Part shown: in pieces, positions 6,749-13,044 of the stretch | How positions within the stretch are numbered: position 1 is the stretch's first letter | Layout: each line of letters opens with the position of its first letter | NCBI GenBank assembly: GCA_020160975.1 | Contig: JAIUPJ010000001.1 | Span: 270,001-302,000 of the forward strand | DNA from: Candidatus Saccharimonadota bacterium | GTDB lineage: Bacteria > Patescibacteriota > Saccharimonadia > Saccharimonadales > Saccharimonadaceae | Reading direction: 5' to 3' | DNA: 32,000 nt | Position numbers and translations under genes: made by a program | Notes under the pieces: generated by a model | Database searches by the model: none | Told to the model about the DNA's origin: nothing | The model's input: the letters and a program-made list of their open reading frames with translations, nothing else

Positions 6749-7822
6749 ATGCCCATCAAGGAGATTCGGGTGCGCGGTATGCGACCGTATGATTTATTTA
6801 GCGTGGTGCTCGATGAGCATATCACGCTTGTTCTTGGCAACAACGGCACTGGCAAAACCACACTCCTCGAAGCTCTCTTCTATATGGCGCAGGGCACCAG
6901 CTTTCGTGGCCGCGACCGCGACATGATTGCCCACGACAGCACCCGAACCGACCTATTGCAGATTGATGACGACGGGAGTGAGCGCCGCGCCTCACTCCAG
7001 CAATCCGCCGATGATAAAGTCAAAAAATCTTTCATCATCGATGGCAAAACCACCATGCGCATGCTCTCAAAGCACCGTCAGCCAGTTGTGCTTTTCGAGC
7101 CTGATGAACTACGGCTACTGAGCAGCTCACCCGAACGACGACGCAAGTTTTTTGACGGTATTCTGACCCGACTCTACCCCCAATATGCTACCGTTCTAGC
7201 TCGCTATCAGCGAGTGCTCATGCAGCGCAACGAGCTCCTCAAACAGCGCGAAATGTTAGATTCTGAGACCTGGGAGTCACAGTTATTTGTCTGGGACATT
7301 AAACTCGCCGAGCTCGCCACCACCATCACTACGATGCGACGCGAATTTATCGTCACCAGCAACACCCACATTGGGAGGCTATATTCGGTGCTCGCCGATG
7401 CCGAGCACCATGTCACCATTAGTTATGTGTCGTCAATTGGTGCCGACAATTATCGTCAATCGCTGATCAATCACCTCACTGCACAGCGCATTACCGACAG
7501 CTACCGCGGCTATACAAGCAGTGGCCCGCACCGCGATGACTTTTCCGTGCAGCTCGACGGTCATGCTGCTGGCGAGACCGCCAGTCGTGGTGAGATGCGC
7601 AGCATCATGCTTGCCTACAAGCTCCTCGAAATTGAACTTCAGCAAGAAGCCTACGGCAGTACCCCTCTCATCCTCATGGACGATGTCTTCTCGGAGCTCG
7701 ATGTCACTCGTGAGCAGCAACTCATGGCAGCACTGGCTGGCTACCAAACAGTAATCACCGCTACTGATCTACGTGATGAGTTAAAAATACATGCAAAAAT
7801 CGTTACCCTTCATCAGTCATAG
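6749..7822 (+). CDS. recF: DNA replication and repair protein RecF
   Basis: Walker A GNNGTGKTTLLEA, an SMC-like signature and Walker B (LILMDDVFSELD). I place the start at ATG 6749 (MPIKEIRV...). TATACT lies 7 nt upstream and there is no SD. Confidence 0.88.
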   Translation: MPIKEIRVRGMRPYDLFSVVLDEHITLVLGNNGTGKTTLLEALFYMAQGTSFRGRDRDMIAHDSTRTDLLQIDDDGSERRASLQQSADDKVKKSFIIDGKTTMRMLSKHRQPVVLFEPDELRLLSSSPERRRKFFDGILTRLYPQYATVLARYQRVLMQRNELLKQREMLDSETWESQLFVWDIKLAELATTITTMRREFIVTSNTHIGRLYSVLADAEHHVTISYVSSIGADNYRQSLINHLTAQRITDSYRGYTSSGPHRDDFSVQLDGHAAGETASRGEMRSIMLAYKLLEIELQQEAYGSTPLILMDDVFSELDVTREQQLMAALAGYQTVITATDLRDELKIHAKIVTLHQS

Positions 7823-7831
7823 TCGTACGCC

Positions 7832-8806
7832 CTACTGCTTGTCCGCCAAAACCCGAAACGCAAATCGTAAGGGCTTGTCGACAAAAAGCCGTCTGACTCC
7901 TCTGAGTGAATAAAACTCTCCGTCAGTTTGCACGTTCATTGGTCGGTGAGGATGCTTATGCTCAATACATGTCCGGTAAACGTCTGCACCTGGTATTCCA
8001 CCTTGGCTCACCATCTTCACCGCTGTTTGGGCAATCAGTGCGAGACGAGCAGTGTTGAGCTCGGCATAATGATACTTCTCTTCGCGGAAACAATACGCCT
8101 CTGGGCTCCACACGACCGAGGCCATCCGTGAGCCATTCAGCAAGACTACGTCTGTCGCTTCAGTTTGACCCAACGATGTTCCGTACGTAATCTCAAATCG
8201 TTCACCGAGAAAATTGCGATCGGGTCTGTGATTATTGTAGTATTTGACCATCTCGACTGCACTTCGCAAAAACATAGCTCGCTTGCCAACGATTCGCTTG
8301 CGAACCTCACCATCACTAAAATGCTCCGCCGCACCAGTCGTCAATTCACCGAGCGTAAGATATGATAACGCTAGCCAGTCGTGAACTGCCGTTCCAGCAC
8401 TGTCAATCGTACGAACATGCAGCGGGTGAAACTCTTTTTGCCCCATGTCATCATTGGCCATCGCCAGGACATTCCGCTTGGCTTTGCCAGATATCGATGC
8501 ACTATCAGAACGGTTACCATACGCCATGAATCCAACCTGAACTTCTGAGAGCAGCCCTGCTATTTGCAGCGCATTAACTGCCAGTGCCGCCATTCCGTCG
8601 CCTCCAGCTTCGAGCACTCGATCACCGGGCCGTACGCATGCAGTGAGTTGCTCGGCCAGTGCGTCAGCTTCTCCGCTCTGCGTTTCGACCGCAACATGAG
8701 CAATCCGCTCATGATCGAGCGGATGGAGTACGTCACGACGAATATCTTGGGCGCGACTGCTAGTTGGATTGCTCACCACCACGAGCTGTTCATAGCTACG
8801 AGGCAT
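7832..8806 (-). CDS. Diacylglycerol-kinase-catalytic-domain family lipid kinase (YegS/BmrU-like)
   Basis: The GGDG motif (EAGGDGMA) and overall DAGK_cat-like layout. Substrate unknown. Confidence 0.6.
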   Translation of the reverse strand: MPRSYEQLVVVSNPTSSRAQDIRRDVLHPLDHERIAHVAVETQSGEADALAEQLTACVRPGDRVLEAGGDGMAALAVNALQIAGLLSEVQVGFMAYGNRSDSASISGKAKRNVLAMANDDMGQKEFHPLHVRTIDSAGTAVHDWLALSYLTLGELTTGAAEHFSDGEVRKRIVGKRAMFLRSAVEMVKYYNNHRPDRNFLGERFEITYGTSLGQTEATDVVLLNGSRMASVVWSPEAYCFREEKYHYAELNTARLALIAQTAVKMVSQGGIPGADVYRTCIEHKHPHRPMNVQTDGEFYSLRGVRRLFVDKPLRFAFRVLADKQ

Positions 8807-8824
8807 TGTACGAACGACTGCTAT

Positions 8825-9421
8825 CTATTCTGTTACGCCGAGCTCAATACGTTTGAACTGCGCGACACGAATATTCTCGCCGCTCTTTGCGATCTGCTCT
8901 TTGATATGATCGCCGACAGACTTACTGTCATCGAGAATATATGCCTGCTCGCTCAATACTTGCTCGGCAAAATGCTTCTTGAGCTGGCCCTCGACGATTT
9001 GCTCCCGCATGCTTTCAGGCTTCTTCTTCAGGTCATCACTCTCAAGCAGCTCTTTCTTCTTGGCTTCCATAACGTCCCCCGGAATATCTTCCATGGTGCT
9101 ATAGACTGGACTCATCGCCGCAATCTGCATAGCGATCTGGTGCGCAAACTCCTTAAATTCGGGGAGGCGTGCCACAAAATCAGTCTCACAGTTTACCTCT
9201 ACAACTACACCAATACGGTTACCATGCACGTAGCTGTCAATTATGCCTTCGCGGGTCTCGCGATCACCTTTTTTCTCGGCCTTTGTCAGACCTTTTTTGC
9301 GCATGGCTTCGAGCGCTTTGTCGAAATTGCCATCGGCTTCGACTAGTGCTGCCTTAGCGTCGGTCAGGCCAACACCAGTCAGTTCTTTTAGTTTCTTGAT
9401 GTCATCGATTGAAATAGACAT
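8825..9421 (-). CDS. tsf: Translation elongation factor Ts (short form)
   Basis: N-terminal UBA-like IKKLKELTGVGLTDAKAAL. I place the start at ATG 9421 (MSISIDD...), preceded by SD GAAAGGA. Confidence 0.9.
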   Translation of the reverse strand: MSISIDDIKKLKELTGVGLTDAKAALVEADGNFDKALEAMRKKGLTKAEKKGDRETREGIIDSYVHGNRIGVVVEVNCETDFVARLPEFKEFAHQIAMQIAAMSPVYSTMEDIPGDVMEAKKKELLESDDLKKKPESMREQIVEGQLKKHFAEQVLSEQAYILDDSKSVGDHIKEQIAKSGENIRVAQFKRIELGVTE

Positions 9422-9434
9422 GTAAAATCCTTTC

Positions 9435-9490
9435 AAATTTATCAGGTTACAGGTTGCATTTTACAGAAATTTATCAGGTTACAGGTTGCA
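9435..9490 (-). repeat. Two perfect 24-nt direct repeats (period 32 nt) in the rpsB-tsf intergenic spacer
   Basis: AAATTTATCAGGTTACAGGTTGCA occurs at 9435-9458 and again at 9467-9490. Confidence 0.9.
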
Positions 9491-9553
9491 GATGTTTGCC
9501 TCCTGCTACCTGTAAAATCTCTGCCCTCCTGCCGCCTGCTACCTTTTTCTTAA

Positions 9554-10246
9554 TTACTCTTTACTCTTTCCTTCTCCCGCTGCAGCGACAAAATAGTCTA
9601 GCATAAGCTGGAGGCCTTTGATTGCATCGTCGTTACCTGGAATCGGATAGTCGACAAAATCAGGGTTTGCATTTGTATCCACAACACCCACGACTGGAAC
9701 GCCGAGATTCTTGGCTTCACGCACGGCGTTTGCGTCGACCAGCGTGTCGAGTACGACCACCACACCTGGCTTACCGTTGAGATCCTTGATGCCACTATAC
9801 TTGAGGTTCAATGCGTCGATTTCTTCCTGAAAACGCTGTACCTCAAGCTTGTTGTAGCGCTTTTCTAGGTCGCCGTTTGCCATACGCTTTTCGAGGTCTT
9901 TGAGCTTCTTGATCTGTGCGCTGGTGGTTGCGACATTCGTCAGCATACCGCCAACCCATCGTTCGGTGACGTATGGCTGGCCAGCTTTTTCGGCCGCAGC
10001 TTTCACAATGTCTTTAGCTTGTTTTTTGGTGCCGACAAATAGTACCGACTTGCCGCTAGCAGCAACTTTGGTGATGACCGGTAGCGCTTTGTCGAGTGCC
10101 TCAACAGTCTTTGCCAGATCGATGACATGCGCATCCTGACGTTTGCTATGAATGTATGGCGCCATCTTTGGGTGCCAACGACTTGTTTTGTGTCCGAAAT
10201 GAACACCGGCTTCATACAAAGCCTTGATATCGACTTCAACAGCCAT
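9554..10246 (-). CDS. rpsB: 30S ribosomal protein S2
   Basis: 230 aa. GVHFGHKTSRWHPKM... is typical of S2. SD GAAGGGAGAAGG is upstream. Confidence 0.95.
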   Translation of the reverse strand: MAVEVDIKALYEAGVHFGHKTSRWHPKMAPYIHSKRQDAHVIDLAKTVEALDKALPVITKVAASGKSVLFVGTKKQAKDIVKAAAEKAGQPYVTERWVGGMLTNVATTSAQIKKLKDLEKRMANGDLEKRYNKLEVQRFQEEIDALNLKYSGIKDLNGKPGVVVVLDTLVDANAVREAKNLGVPVVGVVDTNANPDFVDYPIPGNDDAIKGLQLMLDYFVAAAGEGKSKE

Positions 10247-10263
10247 GATATCCTTCTCCCTTC

Positions 10264-10298
10264 ATCTCGCATCCTATAGCAGGATATCCATGCGAGAT
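10264..10298 (-). promoter_or_regulatory. rpsB 5' leader hairpin immediately upstream of the SD
   Basis: ATCTCGCAT (10264-10272) pairs with ATGCGAGAT (10290-10298), with inner CCT/AGG pairing. It sits between the predicted promoter and the SD. S2 autoregulatory leaders are known in other bacteria. Confidence 0.35.
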
Positions 10299-10327
10299 TG
10301 TTTCGTTAAAAATTTGTTACAGAGGTG

Positions 10328-10356
10328 ATTATAGCAAGTTTCGAGACATATAACAA
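10328..10356 (-). promoter_or_regulatory. Sigma-70-type promoter for rpsB-tsf
   Basis: On the minus strand: TTGTTA (10356-10351), a 17-nt spacer, then TATAAT (10333-10328). Confidence 0.55.
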
Positions 10357-10369
10357 GAGGCCGTTAGGC

Positions 10370-11530
10370 CTATCGGTTGCCCTTGGCGCGGTTGTGAGGT
10401 TTGCAGAGCATCTCGCAGTTGACTATATCCGTGCCGCCGCCTTTACTCCAGGCGCTTACGTGGTCAGCGTCCATGTCTTTGAGCGCCCATACCTTAGATT
10501 TGTTGGCATCGTGCCCGATAGCACAGTACGAACAGTTGGATACTCCTTCTGTCTCGGCTTTTTTGGTTTGCGTCGTGTAGACGGACTTTTTCGTTGCTTC
10601 GTCAAATACGCGCACGTCAAGCAGTTTCGTGTCAGCTTCCCCGGCCAGTACGAACTCAAATATTCCCTTGCGGTTTTTTACGTACGGGTCGCCATACAGT
10701 TCTTGTACGCGCGCCCACAGCGTCGTCGGGTTGTACGACTGTGCATGATATGTTTCGTACAGCCTGCCCCACTCGAGGCCGCGCATTTCGCTTTCAGTGC
10801 CGGCAAATACCGTGTTCGCCCACTCTATCACCGTGTCAAAATACGTCTTTAGCTCGCGGATGTTATCGTCGTAGCGGTGCTGGCTCATGTAGTCTCCCGT
10901 GTTGCCGCGGCTCACCCAATCGAGCGCGACTGCTAGGAAATCTTGGCGGTTGGCACTTCCGCTCACGTACGTGCTCCATTTTTGGATATTGCTGTTTTGG
11001 CTGTTGCTGAACTCTTGTTTGGCGAGCGTCACGAACGGACCGCTATACACGGCATTCATTAATTCTTGTTGGTTGAGTGGCACGCCGGCGATATTGATAG
11101 TGCGAAACCAATCCTTTATCTCGCTCTCGGTACCGCTGCATTCGTAGATGAGCAAGCGGCTGTTCAGTATGAGCTCTTGCTTGTCACGTGCTATCCCGCT
11201 AAAATACTGCTCCATTCCGTCGATCTTGACGGCAAACTTGCCCGTAACGAACCGCCCGATGCTGGTGATGCGCTGCTGGCCATCCAACACTTCGTATGTG
11301 TCGTCGCCCGTACAGTTGAGATATATCAAACCTAGCGGATAACCGCGCAGCAAGCTCTCAATCACCGCCACGTCGCGCTTGCCGTCGGCGTAAATGTAAT
11401 TGCGCTGATATTCCGGCTGGATTGTCAGCTTGCCACCCAGTCCAAACAGCCCCTTGCCTTCGAGTTCGTTATACACGAAACCATCGACGATTTCGCGAAC
11501 GGTTGTGTTTGTCCAGAGATTAGTAATCAT
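10370..11530 (-). CDS. DUF262 (GmrSD N-terminal/ParB-like NTPase fold) domain protein fused to a C-terminal HNH endonuclease
   Basis: The N-terminal half carries [13 protein letters not shown] (the DGQQR hallmark of DUF262). The C-terminus is CSYCAIG...[33 protein letters not shown] (HNH beta-beta-alpha-metal finger). Its start overlaps the upstream stop (TAATG). Confidence 0.75.
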
Positions 11531-11832
11531 TACTTTTTACCGAATTTTTTGCCAAGCTTCATGATTGCCTCAAGTTTTTCGGGATCAAGATTACCCATCA
11601 AATCAATTGCCGCTCCCATAGTCTCAACCTTTTCTTTTGTGATTTCTTGGCTTTGCAGCTTTGATATTTCGTCACGAAGCATTTCGGCTAATTCAATCAG
11701 TTTTGCGTTCTTTTCAACAACTACGTCATATGCCGCTTTATCGTAAGTTTTGTTTTCCTTATATTTAGAATAACTACCTTTTGCCTCGGCAATAATTTTA
11801 TCTACCCCTAGACTTATACTAATTTCGCTCAT
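11530..11832 (-). CDS. Hypothetical 100-aa Lys/Glu-rich predicted coiled-coil protein (no recognisable family)
   Basis: The ORF is coupled on both sides: ATGA overlap with the methyltransferase stop and TAATG overlap with the nuclease start. No TM segment, HTH or catalytic motif is visible. Confidence 0.6.
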
Positions 11833-13013
11833 TTTTCCTCCCTCTTTTGTTTAATTAAAATTCTAGAATACACTTTCCTTCTTCCTACTACACCAACACC
11901 TTGTCCTGCTCCTTCTGCGCCAGGTACGTTGGGTATGAACTTTAGTGACTGCAGTATATCTTTCGGCATGTTTGCATACGAGTTTCCGCTTGCTTGCCAC
12001 AAAATTTCAAATTGATCAGGGTTATATTTGTCTAAAAAGCTAATTGGTACGCCCATTGCTCCATTATAATCACTAGGGATTGCATCGGTGAATGGTACTT
12101 CTATGGCATCGTAGTTGTCATATTTTTTGTACGCCGTGTCGCTTTTTTGTACCTTTTTGTTGAACTTCTGGTTGTCCGCCATCGTCATGAGACTGAGAGG
12201 CTGATGGCGGCGACCGTGGTCGATATTTGTAAACCAGTTCACATTGCGGAATTTTACCAGTCCTGTTTTTTCATCATAAACACCGCTCGCAAAATCACGA
12301 ACATTCGGCGTTGCAAAGTACGCGTTGCCTGCATTAAAGCCGTTGCCGAGCCACATCTTATTTTCTTTGATAAGCGGGAAAATTTCTTTGTAAGTAATAG
12401 CATTCATGTTGCCAATAATCGAAAATTTCTTGCCATGTTCTACGAGCTGAGAAACGTATTCACGGAACAGACTGAACGGCGGATTCGTTACCACGACGTC
12501 GGATTGTTTGAGCAACTCGATGCATTCTTGACTACGGAAATCACCATCACCTGCAAGCGGTGTCCACTCGTTGTTTTTATTTGCTTTTAGCTGCTCGGCG
12601 ATATCCGCTAGGCTAAATGAGCCGTCGTTGTTATAGTCGCTGACTTCGTTGATAATAAGTTTGTTCGCGGTAGGTTTCGGCCTACCTTTTTCGACAGTCT
12701 TGTCCTCGACGTCAGGAATTAGCGAAAGCTGGGTGTTGGCAATCGGGCTGGGCTTGTAGCTGGTCGTGATGAGCCGCTTTAGCCCCAAGCGATTAAAATT
12801 CAATACGAAATACCGAAAGAAATTACTCTCGAAAGGATCGTCGCAGTTGCAGTACACCACCTTGCCGCGGAACGTGTCCGGGTCATACTCTAGGTAGGCT
12901 TCCATTTCCTTTTGGATGTCTGGAAACTGAGTATAAAACTCGTCGTTTTTTGCTTTTTTCGCGCTTGTGAGATTGCTGTTTGCCATACGGACCTTATTAT
13001 ACACTTTTGACAT
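11829..13013 (-). CDS. N6-adenine DNA methyltransferase, EcoRI-methylase-family-like
   Basis: KNDEFYTQ near the N-terminus, CNCDDPFES, VVVTNPPFS (NPPF catalytic motif IV) and GVPISFLDKYNPDQFEI. An alternative start at ATG 12986 (MANSNL...) has TATAAT 9 nt upstream. Confidence 0.75.
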   Translation of the reverse strand: MSKVYNKVRMANSNLTSAKKAKNDEFYTQFPDIQKEMEAYLEYDPDTFRGKVVYCNCDDPFESNFFRYFVLNFNRLGLKRLITTSYKPSPIANTQLSLIPDVEDKTVEKGRPKPTANKLIINEVSDYNNDGSFSLADIAEQLKANKNNEWTPLAGDGDFRSQECIELLKQSDVVVTNPPFSLFREYVSQLVEHGKKFSIIGNMNAITYKEIFPLIKENKMWLGNGFNAGNAYFATPNVRDFASGVYDEKTGLVKFRNVNWFTNIDHGRRHQPLSLMTMADNQKFNKKVQKSDTAYKKYDNYDAIEVPFTDAIPSDYNGAMGVPISFLDKYNPDQFEILWQASGNSYANMPKDILQSLKFIPNVPGAEGAGQGVGVVGRRKVYSRILIKQKREEK

Positions 13014-13035
13014 TCCTAGGTTCCTCTGATAAACT
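13007..13035 (+). promoter_or_regulatory. Promoter for rpmE, giving a near-leaderless transcript
   Basis: TTGACA (13007-13012), a 17-nt spacer, TAAACT (13030-13035), then only 9 nt to ATG 13045 with no SD. The -35 lies inside the first codons of the divergent methyltransferase ORF. Confidence 0.55.
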
Positions 13036-13044
13036 ATTCAAGTT

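Follow-up and report, generated by a model that had tools for sequence, protein, structure and literature searches.

The spacer between rpmE and rpsB in a Candidatus Saccharimonadota bacterium (contig JAIUPJ010000001.1, positions 270,001 to 302,000, a stretch of 32,000 nucleotides hereafter called the window) carries three overlapping minus-strand genes that probably form a mobile restriction-modification (R-M) cassette. A DUF262-HNH nuclease would serve as its restriction (R) subunit, an EcoRI-family methyltransferase (MTase; M gene) would provide protection by N6-methyladenine (m6A), and a small open reading frame (ORF) located between them would be an accessory guest. The R-M reading is the best supported one for this cassette, as it draws upon matches to catalogued profiles, linkage of an MTase gene to the nuclease gene in 73 of 80 loci, and intact motifs in the encoded proteins. 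The three genes are as follows:

11829..13013, minus strand: EcoRI-family N6-adenine DNA methyltransferase (M gene), 394 aa; Pfam PF13651 and PADLOC MTase_II
11530..11832, minus strand: helical guest protein, 100 aa, from a rare family that has no annotation; no curated family match
10370..11530, minus strand: DUF262-HNH nuclease (R gene), 386 aa; Pfam GmrSD_N plus HNH and PADLOC REase_II

Upon re-reading the sequence, the three ORFs had the same coordinates and stop/start overlaps that were given in the initial annotation. The MTase TGA and the small-ORF ATG overlap as ATGA (minus-strand junction GGGAGGAAAAATGAGC), and this junction includes a GGAGG ribosome-binding site 5 nt upstream that serves the small ORF. 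The small-ORF TAA shares 1 nt with the nuclease ATG (TAATG; minus-strand junction AAAAAGTAATGATT), such that the ends of the 303-bp small ORF overlap both the M and R genes. As both overlaps are real, the earlier reading of the three translationally coupled genes as a single operon is supported as a sequence-based prediction. The GC content and the GC content at third codon positions (GC3) were 0.44 and 0.50 for the MTase, 0.36 and 0.34 for the small ORF, 0.53 and 0.67 for the nuclease, and 0.50 and 0.52 for rpsB, in a window with a GC content of 0.50. Over the last 300 nt of the MTase gene, GC3 was 0.27-0.36, compared to about 0.52-0.59 in host genes. The cassette is indeed mosaic and partly foreign in composition, as first described, with the small ORF and the nuclease lying far apart in GC3.

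Domain architecture of the methyltransferase and nuclease

The MTase, DUF262, and HNH assignments all stood up to Pfam analysis, with each scoring above its curated cut-off, and the motifs originally quoted were found in the proteins. EcoRI_methylase (PF13651) matched the MTase with 436 bits (cut-off 26.4, E=1.2e-130) over profile positions 1-345 of 345, and the PADLOC MTase_II model matched it near full length (E=1.7e-104). The MTase motifs are DEFYTQ (24-29), CNCDDPF (55-61), and NPPF (177-180), the last of which constitutes an intact (D/N)PP(Y/F) catalytic motif of S-adenosylmethionine-dependent amino-MTases. Most MTase homologues align only from about residue 10 of the window protein, and the start is ambiguous between the annotated M1 and M10 (ATG at 12986-12984, preceded by AAGG); M10 at 12986 may be the true start.

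The nuclease is composed of a DUF262 (ParB/Srx-like NTPase) domain at residues ~1-165, an all-helical middle region at ~165-328, and a Cys4 HNH domain at ~330-386. GmrSD_N/DUF262 (PF03235) matched with 78.7 bits (cut-off 33.2, E=8.1e-22), HNH (PF01844) with 27.8 bits (cut-off 21.4, E=2.9e-6), and the PADLOC REase_II model PDLC03418 matched from end to end (10-371 of 372, E=7.2e-86). Its motifs are DGQQR (83-87), CSYC (333-336), DADH (354-357), NCEMLC (371-376), and HNRAKGN (379-385), and the DGQQR, C333/C336/C372/C376, D356-H357, N371, and H379-N380 residues were invariant in 32 nuclease homologues. Because DGQQR is invariant, the initial idea of a nuclease gated by nucleoside triphosphate (NTP) is still plausible. 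Pfam searches at E<=0.1 gave no match to DUF1524 (PF07510) in the nuclease, the only HNH-type matches being PF01844 and, below threshold, HNH_5. An AlphaFold2 (AF2) model of the nuclease was of moderate confidence (predicted local distance difference test, pLDDT, 67; predicted template modeling score, pTM, 0.41). A Foldseek search of the PDB with this model placed BrxU on top, followed by ParB/Srx proteins (N-terminal part), the Gme HNH nickase (C-terminal part), and SspE, all of them non-significant (none with E<=0.001). When the PDB was searched by sequence, using both proteins as well as a profile of the nuclease, nothing significant was returned (BrxU, E=0.32). The fold matches to BrxU, ParB/Srx, and the HNH nickase thus offer weak but consistent support for the predicted domain layout. 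The helical middle region probably binds DNA, and it may correspond to the 'ParBDB' DNA-binding domain that follows DUF262 in GmrSD, SspE, DndB, and NsnA (PMC12065111).

The M-R pair is widespread and already catalogued

A homologue search with the nuclease returned at least 8000 matches, and all among the matches listed had ≥74% identity. At least 436 species-representative genomes contain relatives, and these genomes belong to Bacteroidota, Chloroflexota, Pseudomonadota, Verrucomicrobiota, many lineages of the candidate phyla radiation (CPR), and others. An EcoRI-family MTase gene was found upstream and on the same strand as the nuclease gene in 73/80 sampled loci (loci are designated by L numbers), and in six of the seven remaining loci the sequence upstream extends for <1.1 kb. 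M and R directly adjoin each other in most of the 73 loci, usually with overlapping stop and start codons. The two-gene cassette is also carried by plasmids of Moraxella, Enterococcus, and Rhodococcus (three phyla) and by the Flavobacterium phage vB_FspS_laban6-1, in which it is a moron beside tail genes. The M-R core is therefore a very successful mobile R-M module across many phyla, a phage, and plasmids, including those of Enterococcus with optrA and erm(A). On the E. faecium plasmid pBN83-1 (L002; NZ_CP142416.1 46989-49343), the cassette lies a few kb from erm(A) and optrA, and the R-M module thus travels with linezolid and macrolide resistance genes on large enterococcal plasmids. The closest relative of the window cassette is a two-gene form in a Saccharibacteria genome, with a nuclease that is 82% identical. 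Across the 73 cassettes, identity to the window proteins was 70-82% for the nuclease versus 44-76% for the MTase, whereas typical Type II pairs show the opposite pattern, with the MTase being more conserved than the nuclease.

Several features of the MTase gene were variable among these cassettes. Its C-terminal ~50 aa are hypervariable across the 73 cassettes (L021-L100 set). The MTase nearest to that of the window, including the variable tail, belongs to the two-gene Saccharibacteria cassette L012; we had considered whether the low-GC 3' end of the window MTase gene and the small ORF had a common source in another three-gene cassette, and this was not supported given that the tail is closest to a two-gene form. 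In L080, the nuclease is preceded by a tandem pair of EcoRI-family MTase genes (7648-9982), and in L049 (9447-10004) and L082 (9507-9998) the MTase is seemingly split into two ORFs, possibly through frameshift or pseudogenization.

The initial annotation had proposed that an MTase coupled to a DUF262-HNH enzyme is a new, non-textbook layout. This is not supported for the pair itself, which is found in the species representatives mentioned above and is already catalogued in PADLOC as Type II (PDLC03418, 7e-86; MTase_II, 2e-104), a database in which the R-M models are attributed to REBASE. Among searchable papers, with REBASE itself outside the search, we found no biochemical characterization of the pair. 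The systems covered by a survey of ParB-DUF262 defense are GmrSD, PD-T4-2, Dazbog, SspABCD-SspE, and Menshen, with no methyltransferase mentioned anywhere (PMC12065111), and the pair is likewise undescribed in a phylogenomic study of GmrSD (PMC4619093) and a 2025 EcoSal review (PMC12707154). The same was true of the Orlowski-Bujnicki classification, the PADLOC papers, the Menshen and BREX surveys, and the literature on AATT enzymes. Thus, the M-R pair is catalogued, though uncharacterized in the searchable literature. From a characterized member, one could learn whether a nuclease that is blocked by methylation, rather than dependent upon it, can make use of a ParB-type NTPase domain, and which site it recognizes. 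In addition, an R-M barrier and its m6A motif matter for transformation in Saccharibacteria and CPR genetics.

The small ORF as a guest of the M-R junction

The 100-aa protein was originally cast as the element that couples the MTase and nuclease into one system. This role was not borne out, as the small ORF has no counterpart in the closest two-gene cassette and is one of many guests at the M-R junction. In a DNA alignment with this two-gene relative, an ORF of ~300 bp sits exactly at the former overlap between the M stop and the R start, and the 5' end of the nuclease gene is collinear from the start codon onward. The GGAGG found ahead of the nuclease in this relative is placed ahead of the small ORF in the window, and the window nuclease start has no clear ribosome-binding site. 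Inserts of 0.6-3.6 kb were present between M and R in 13-14 of the 73 loci (L024, L027, L032, L035, L048, L050, L058, L062, L075, L078, L085, L091, and L096), mostly in CPR genomes. Hidden Markov models (HMMs) confirmed RhuM, ORF6N, Bro-N, DUF2130, HEPN_AbiU2, T5orf172, and AIPR among these guests; Fic-like proteins, a C5-MTase with an ATPase, a duplicated MTase, and IS200/RAYT-like ORFs were judged by eye only. By this comparison, the small ORF of the window reads as another junction guest and not a core component, and it is the guest gene that is rare and unusual here, the three-gene form being a rare variant of a widespread kind of R-M system. In L091, a 59-aa ORF (8529-8708) duplicates the nuclease N-terminus (EYQRNY) upstream of the guests, with the full nuclease at 10001, and this duplicate resembles a scar left by recombination when the guests were inserted.

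Searches of Pfam, PADLOC, NCBIfam, and PHROGs assigned the small protein to no family, with only sub-threshold coiled-coil noise, and the same databases detected no helix-turn-helix (HTH) family in it. Its homologues amount to 6 clusters among 5.8 billion proteins, and the family to 40 clusters at 50% identity among 1.84 billion representatives. The window protein is a member of this family, in whose profile search P0121, 99% identical to it, scored E=2.7e-41. The order M-small-R also occurs at two other chromosomal sites (L014/15 and L016-19), making three with the window, and in L020 the small ORF lies upstream of a 150-aa ORF followed by the nuclease. The nucleases of the small-ORF cassettes are not monophyletic, being 69-82% identical to a two-gene relative versus 64-72% to each other, which argues that the small ORF was gained or lost repeatedly.

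More distant members of the family occur in a different arrangement. In 6/6 examined, the small gene encodes a helical protein of ~90-130 aa, and its end overlaps or abuts a downstream gene for a protein of ~210-226 aa with an N-terminal hydrophobic helix. The modules of small and transmembrane (TM) partner genes are located at:

L181, 5001-5941
L183, 5001-5919
L185, 5001-6034
L187, 5001-5914
L190, 3965-4890
L193, 257-1218

The partner belongs to no family in Pfam, PADLOC, or NCBIfam. Two of the pairs are situated between the hsdS and hsdR genes of Type I operons (L185 and L190), one of them abutting hsdR, and another is found beside ResIII/RE_endonuc and NERD genes. As defined here, the two-gene family has a small protein of ~90-110 aa with the C-terminal motif LPxK(D/E)EVExMxxMLxLxxKLD, of which the window small protein has a degenerate form. 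The small and membrane proteins may together constitute a new accessory or abortive-infection module, and the small ORF of the window points to an unannotated two-gene module (a small helical protein plus a membrane-anchored one) embedded beside restriction subunits. We also considered the 150-aa ORF of L020 as a homologue of the ~215-aa membrane partner; at 18% identity, this was unconvincing. On the same short contig (L020, 2795-4387), genes for an HTH-SocA_Panacea protein and a protein with a DpnI-like (m6A-dependent) nuclease domain lie downstream of the nuclease, an odd combination in which an m6A-dependent enzyme stands beside a nuclease that is normally paired with an m6A MTase.

What the guest might do for the cassette is suggested by its position. 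Every small ORF examined has a strong Shine-Dalgarno sequence, and the downstream gene starts at its stop, after a conserved GGnAAAAA. Because the strong ribosome-binding site sits upon the small ORF and there is none at the nuclease start, translation of the window nuclease would depend upon termination-reinitiation from the small ORF, and probably does so. We tentatively suggest, as its most likely role, that the small ORF may tune or delay nuclease expression or tune nuclease activity, possibly also binding the nuclease. In this respect, it resembles the controller (C) proteins of Type II R-M systems, such as C.PvuII and C.Esp1396I, being a small ORF immediately upstream of and overlapping R that could delay R expression in a new host. 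Unlike C proteins, however, it has no detected HTH and is situated downstream of M rather than at the head of a C-R operon; furthermore, no C-box was identified, and most cassettes of this family have no small ORF at all. A second precedent comes from guests that are embedded in the operons of R-M systems, e.g. PrrC of the Type I EcoPrrI system or the RhuM, Fic, and Abi genes between hsdM/S and hsdR. As in those operons, an unrelated small gene lies between M and R and would be co-transcribed with them, and members of its own family are found in two Type I operons, whereas in the window the guest has entered a Type II-like operon of two genes and is a single 100-aa protein without its usual membrane partner.

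An unlikely alternative is that the small protein is a safety catch at the protein level, similar to an antitoxin or inhibitor, which binds the product of the downstream gene, the DUF262-HNH nuclease in the window and the membrane-anchored partner elsewhere, and holds it inactive until phage infection, operon loss, or a similar trigger releases it. The small gene is always the first of the overlapping pair, which is the usual antitoxin-toxin order, and the surrounding contexts are defense loci. An N-terminal motif, IAxAKGS..K..NKTY, is invariant in the nuclease-adjacent small proteins and less conserved in the TM-partnered ones; this specificity to one subfamily would fit adaptation to a new partner. 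In L020, moreover, where the small ORF precedes the nuclease, the contig extends ~1.1 kb further upstream and no EcoRI-family MTase was detected there. However, nucleases with 70-82% identity work in two-gene cassettes without the small ORF, and the two kinds of downstream partner have no detectable homology, so a single binder for both would be unparsimonious. The AF2 model of the small protein (four helices, pLDDT 56) is of low confidence, and no known antitoxin family matches, the nearest being SocA_Panacea at E=0.056, below its cut-off.

We assign a similarly low likelihood to the small ORF being a neutral hitch-hiker, i.e. what is left of a two-gene guest after loss of the membrane partner, kept only for the ribosome-binding site from which the nuclease is translated. 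In agreement with this, no remnant of the ~215-aa partner was found in the window, where the nuclease stands in its place; the M-R junction takes many unrelated guests; small-ORF cassettes are scattered in the nuclease tree; and the low GC3 of the small ORF is unlike that of both neighboring genes. A neutral passenger would be at odds with the recurrence of the M-small-R order at three sites, and the closest relatives of the small protein have only 44-64% identity yet retain 21 invariant residues and intact frames. Because such diverged members keep invariant residues and open frames, the small protein appears to be under purifying selection.

Proposed mode of action of the cassette and its alternatives

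As an R-M system, the cassette would operate as follows. The MTase would mark host DNA by m6A and thereby protect the host, and the nuclease would cut DNA without the cognate m6A mark, with NTP binding via DGQQR probably licensing cleavage, as in GmrSD, BrxU, and SspE. The M-then-R order with overlapping codons would ensure that R is never made without M. The near-obligate linkage to M, together with this order and its overlapping codons, suggests that the nuclease would be harmful without the MTase, so that it would be blocked by methylation rather than dependent upon it.

Several observations weigh against this interpretation or temper it. Protection of the host by the MTase is a prediction, and an analysis of palindrome depletion, in the window minus the cassette and in 1.16 Mb from the 80 carrier loci, yielded no candidate recognition site; there was general palindrome avoidance only, and AATT, GAATTC, and CAATTG were not outliers. 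The PADLOC REase model may rest upon a characterized or a merely putative REBASE enzyme, and a requirement for NTP, if true, would place the nuclease outside the strict Type II definition. The stronger conservation of the nuclease relative to the MTase may hint at a less conventional division of labor. With regard to the guest, the small-protein model is poor, binding of the nuclease by this protein is conjectural, and given its repeated gain or loss, the small ORF may be dispensable.

The R-M interpretation also fits the nearest known systems in part. Type II R-M systems with HNH (beta-beta-alpha-Me) endonucleases, which we take to include KpnI and Hpy99I, have in common with the window cassette M and R genes that are separate but adjacent, an EcoRI-family m6A MTase of the gamma class, and mobility via plasmids, phages, and chromosomal islands, as well as a Cys4 zinc-finger HNH active site that is intact in the window nuclease. 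Unlike them, the window nuclease has an N-terminal DUF262 domain with an invariant DGQQR and may need NTP. This domain, the helical middle, and a C-terminal His-Me finger are shared with GmrSD and BrxU (BrxU structure 7P9K), whereas the window nuclease is ~386 aa compared to their ~580-600 aa and has a PF01844 Cys4 HNH in place of the DUF1524 that defines GmrSD, BrxU, and SspE. It belongs to a family that is almost always linked to an MTase and presumably blocked by modification, unlike stand-alone Type IV GmrSD. The assertion in the initial annotation that DUF262 nucleases are never paired with a modification module overlooked SspABCD-SspE, in which a DUF262-type nuclease is genetically paired with a host DNA-modification module, as it is here. 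The two differ in that a single m6A MTase takes the place of phosphorothioation by SspABCD and in the type of nuclease domain and the size of the protein, and no ssp or dnd genes were found near the cassette, whose neighbors are rpsB, tsf, rpmE, and prfA.

A more ambitious reading, which we regard as quite improbable, is that the cassette represents a distinct R-M class in which a ParB-type NTPase reads m6A and gates the HNH, following the logic of GmrSD and SspE but in the direction of self-protection, with the small-protein family acting as a portable regulator of restriction subunits. If true, such a regulator would couple to and restrain the downstream effector, be it a membrane protein near HsdR or the window nuclease, for instance for safe establishment in a new host or until triggered by infection. 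We consider it very unlikely that the nuclease follows the logic of SspE, with DUF262 sensing host m6A and its NTPase activating the HNH to nick or cleave unmarked invader DNA, in which case methylation would both activate the enzyme and label self. The invariant NTP-binding DGQQR motif, the stronger conservation of the nuclease compared to the MTase, and the placement of BrxU as the closest solved fold with SspE also among the matches would be compatible with it, and DUF262 is the domain by which GmrSD and SspE sense modification (PMC12707154, PMC12065111). Modification sensing by the window nuclease would be an analogy to these proteins, however; the fold matches are non-significant, the C-terminus is a classical PF01844 zinc-finger HNH with no detected DUF1524, and the compact M-then-R arrangement and its REBASE/PADLOC cataloguing fit ordinary methylation-blocked restriction. 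Finally, a Type IV, modification-dependent enzyme of the GmrSD family with an incidentally adjacent MTase can be discounted almost entirely, even though the N-terminal domain matches Pfam GmrSD_N and some homologues are named McrA-like by JGI, given that the MTase lies upstream on the same strand in 73/80 loci, usually with overlapping codons, that the pair moves together on plasmids and a phage, and that DUF1524 is absent from the Pfam matches.

Insertion of the cassette into the rpmE-rpsB spacer

The initial annotation had described the cassette as inserted between rpsB and rpmE and as the only non-housekeeping block between these two ribosomal-protein genes. Its neighbors are indeed housekeeping genes (tsf, rpsB, rpmE, prfA, prmC, frr, and uppS). 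The nuclease is 100% identical to a protein of Patescibacteria/Candidatus Saccharimonas assemblies (contigs up to 973 kb), and at least 8 of the 20 contigs that were read, which come from several samples, carry the entire cassette with 100% conservation and its ORFs intact. To compare the junction in relatives, we used a metagenome scan with RpsB, which yielded 80 related loci with 75-86% RpsB identity, in which rpmE and rpsB are divergent neighbors. The spacer is empty, at 141-275 bp, in 12 related Saccharibacteria loci, and the cassette was present in the spacer of 0/80 related loci. When joined, the residual spacers of the window (31 and 123 bp) can be aligned from end to end to the shortest of these empty sites (141-158 bp), and the -35/-10 and leader of rpsB align with eight empty-site loci. 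Because the relatives have empty sites that align with the joined flanks of the window, the cassette reads as a foreign insertion, specific to its lineage and acquired horizontally. The foreign, mosaic origin that was initially suggested is supported. No target-site duplication or flanking repeats were found at the insertion borders, the longest shared direct word being 6 nt. The other features of the insertion and its borders are:

10370..13024, unstranded: approximate extent of the inserted DNA in the rpmE-rpsB spacer, from alignment to empty sites
10358..10371, minus strand: GC-rich hairpin AGGCCTAACGGCCT, terminator-like, overlapping the last two bases of the nuclease stop and running just past it; from a scan for terminator-like structures
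10328..10356, minus strand: rpsB promoter-like site, TTGTTA-17-TATAAT with TG, host sequence; from a consensus scan and empty-site alignment
13007..13035, plus strand: rpmE promoter-like site, TTGACA-17-TAAACT; from a consensus scan only

The hairpin marks the approximate right edge of the insertion and is followed by the native rpsB promoter-like site. At the other end, the 5' end of the cassette had been described as overlapping the rpmE promoter. A promoter-like site does overlap there, and its -35 (TTGACA) is the reverse complement of MTase codons 1-3 (ATGTCAA), but its standing as a promoter comes from a consensus match only.

The cassette is not the sole kind of cargo at this position. 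About 45 of the related loci (L101-L180) carry 0.6-4.5 kb of unrelated cargo in the spacer, and we conclude from these comparisons that the rpmE-rpsB spacer (window 10247-13044) is a hypervariable insertion hotspot in related Saccharibacteria. The cargo of the other loci encodes pilin-like, TerD-like, and large hypothetical proteins, none of them R-M components.

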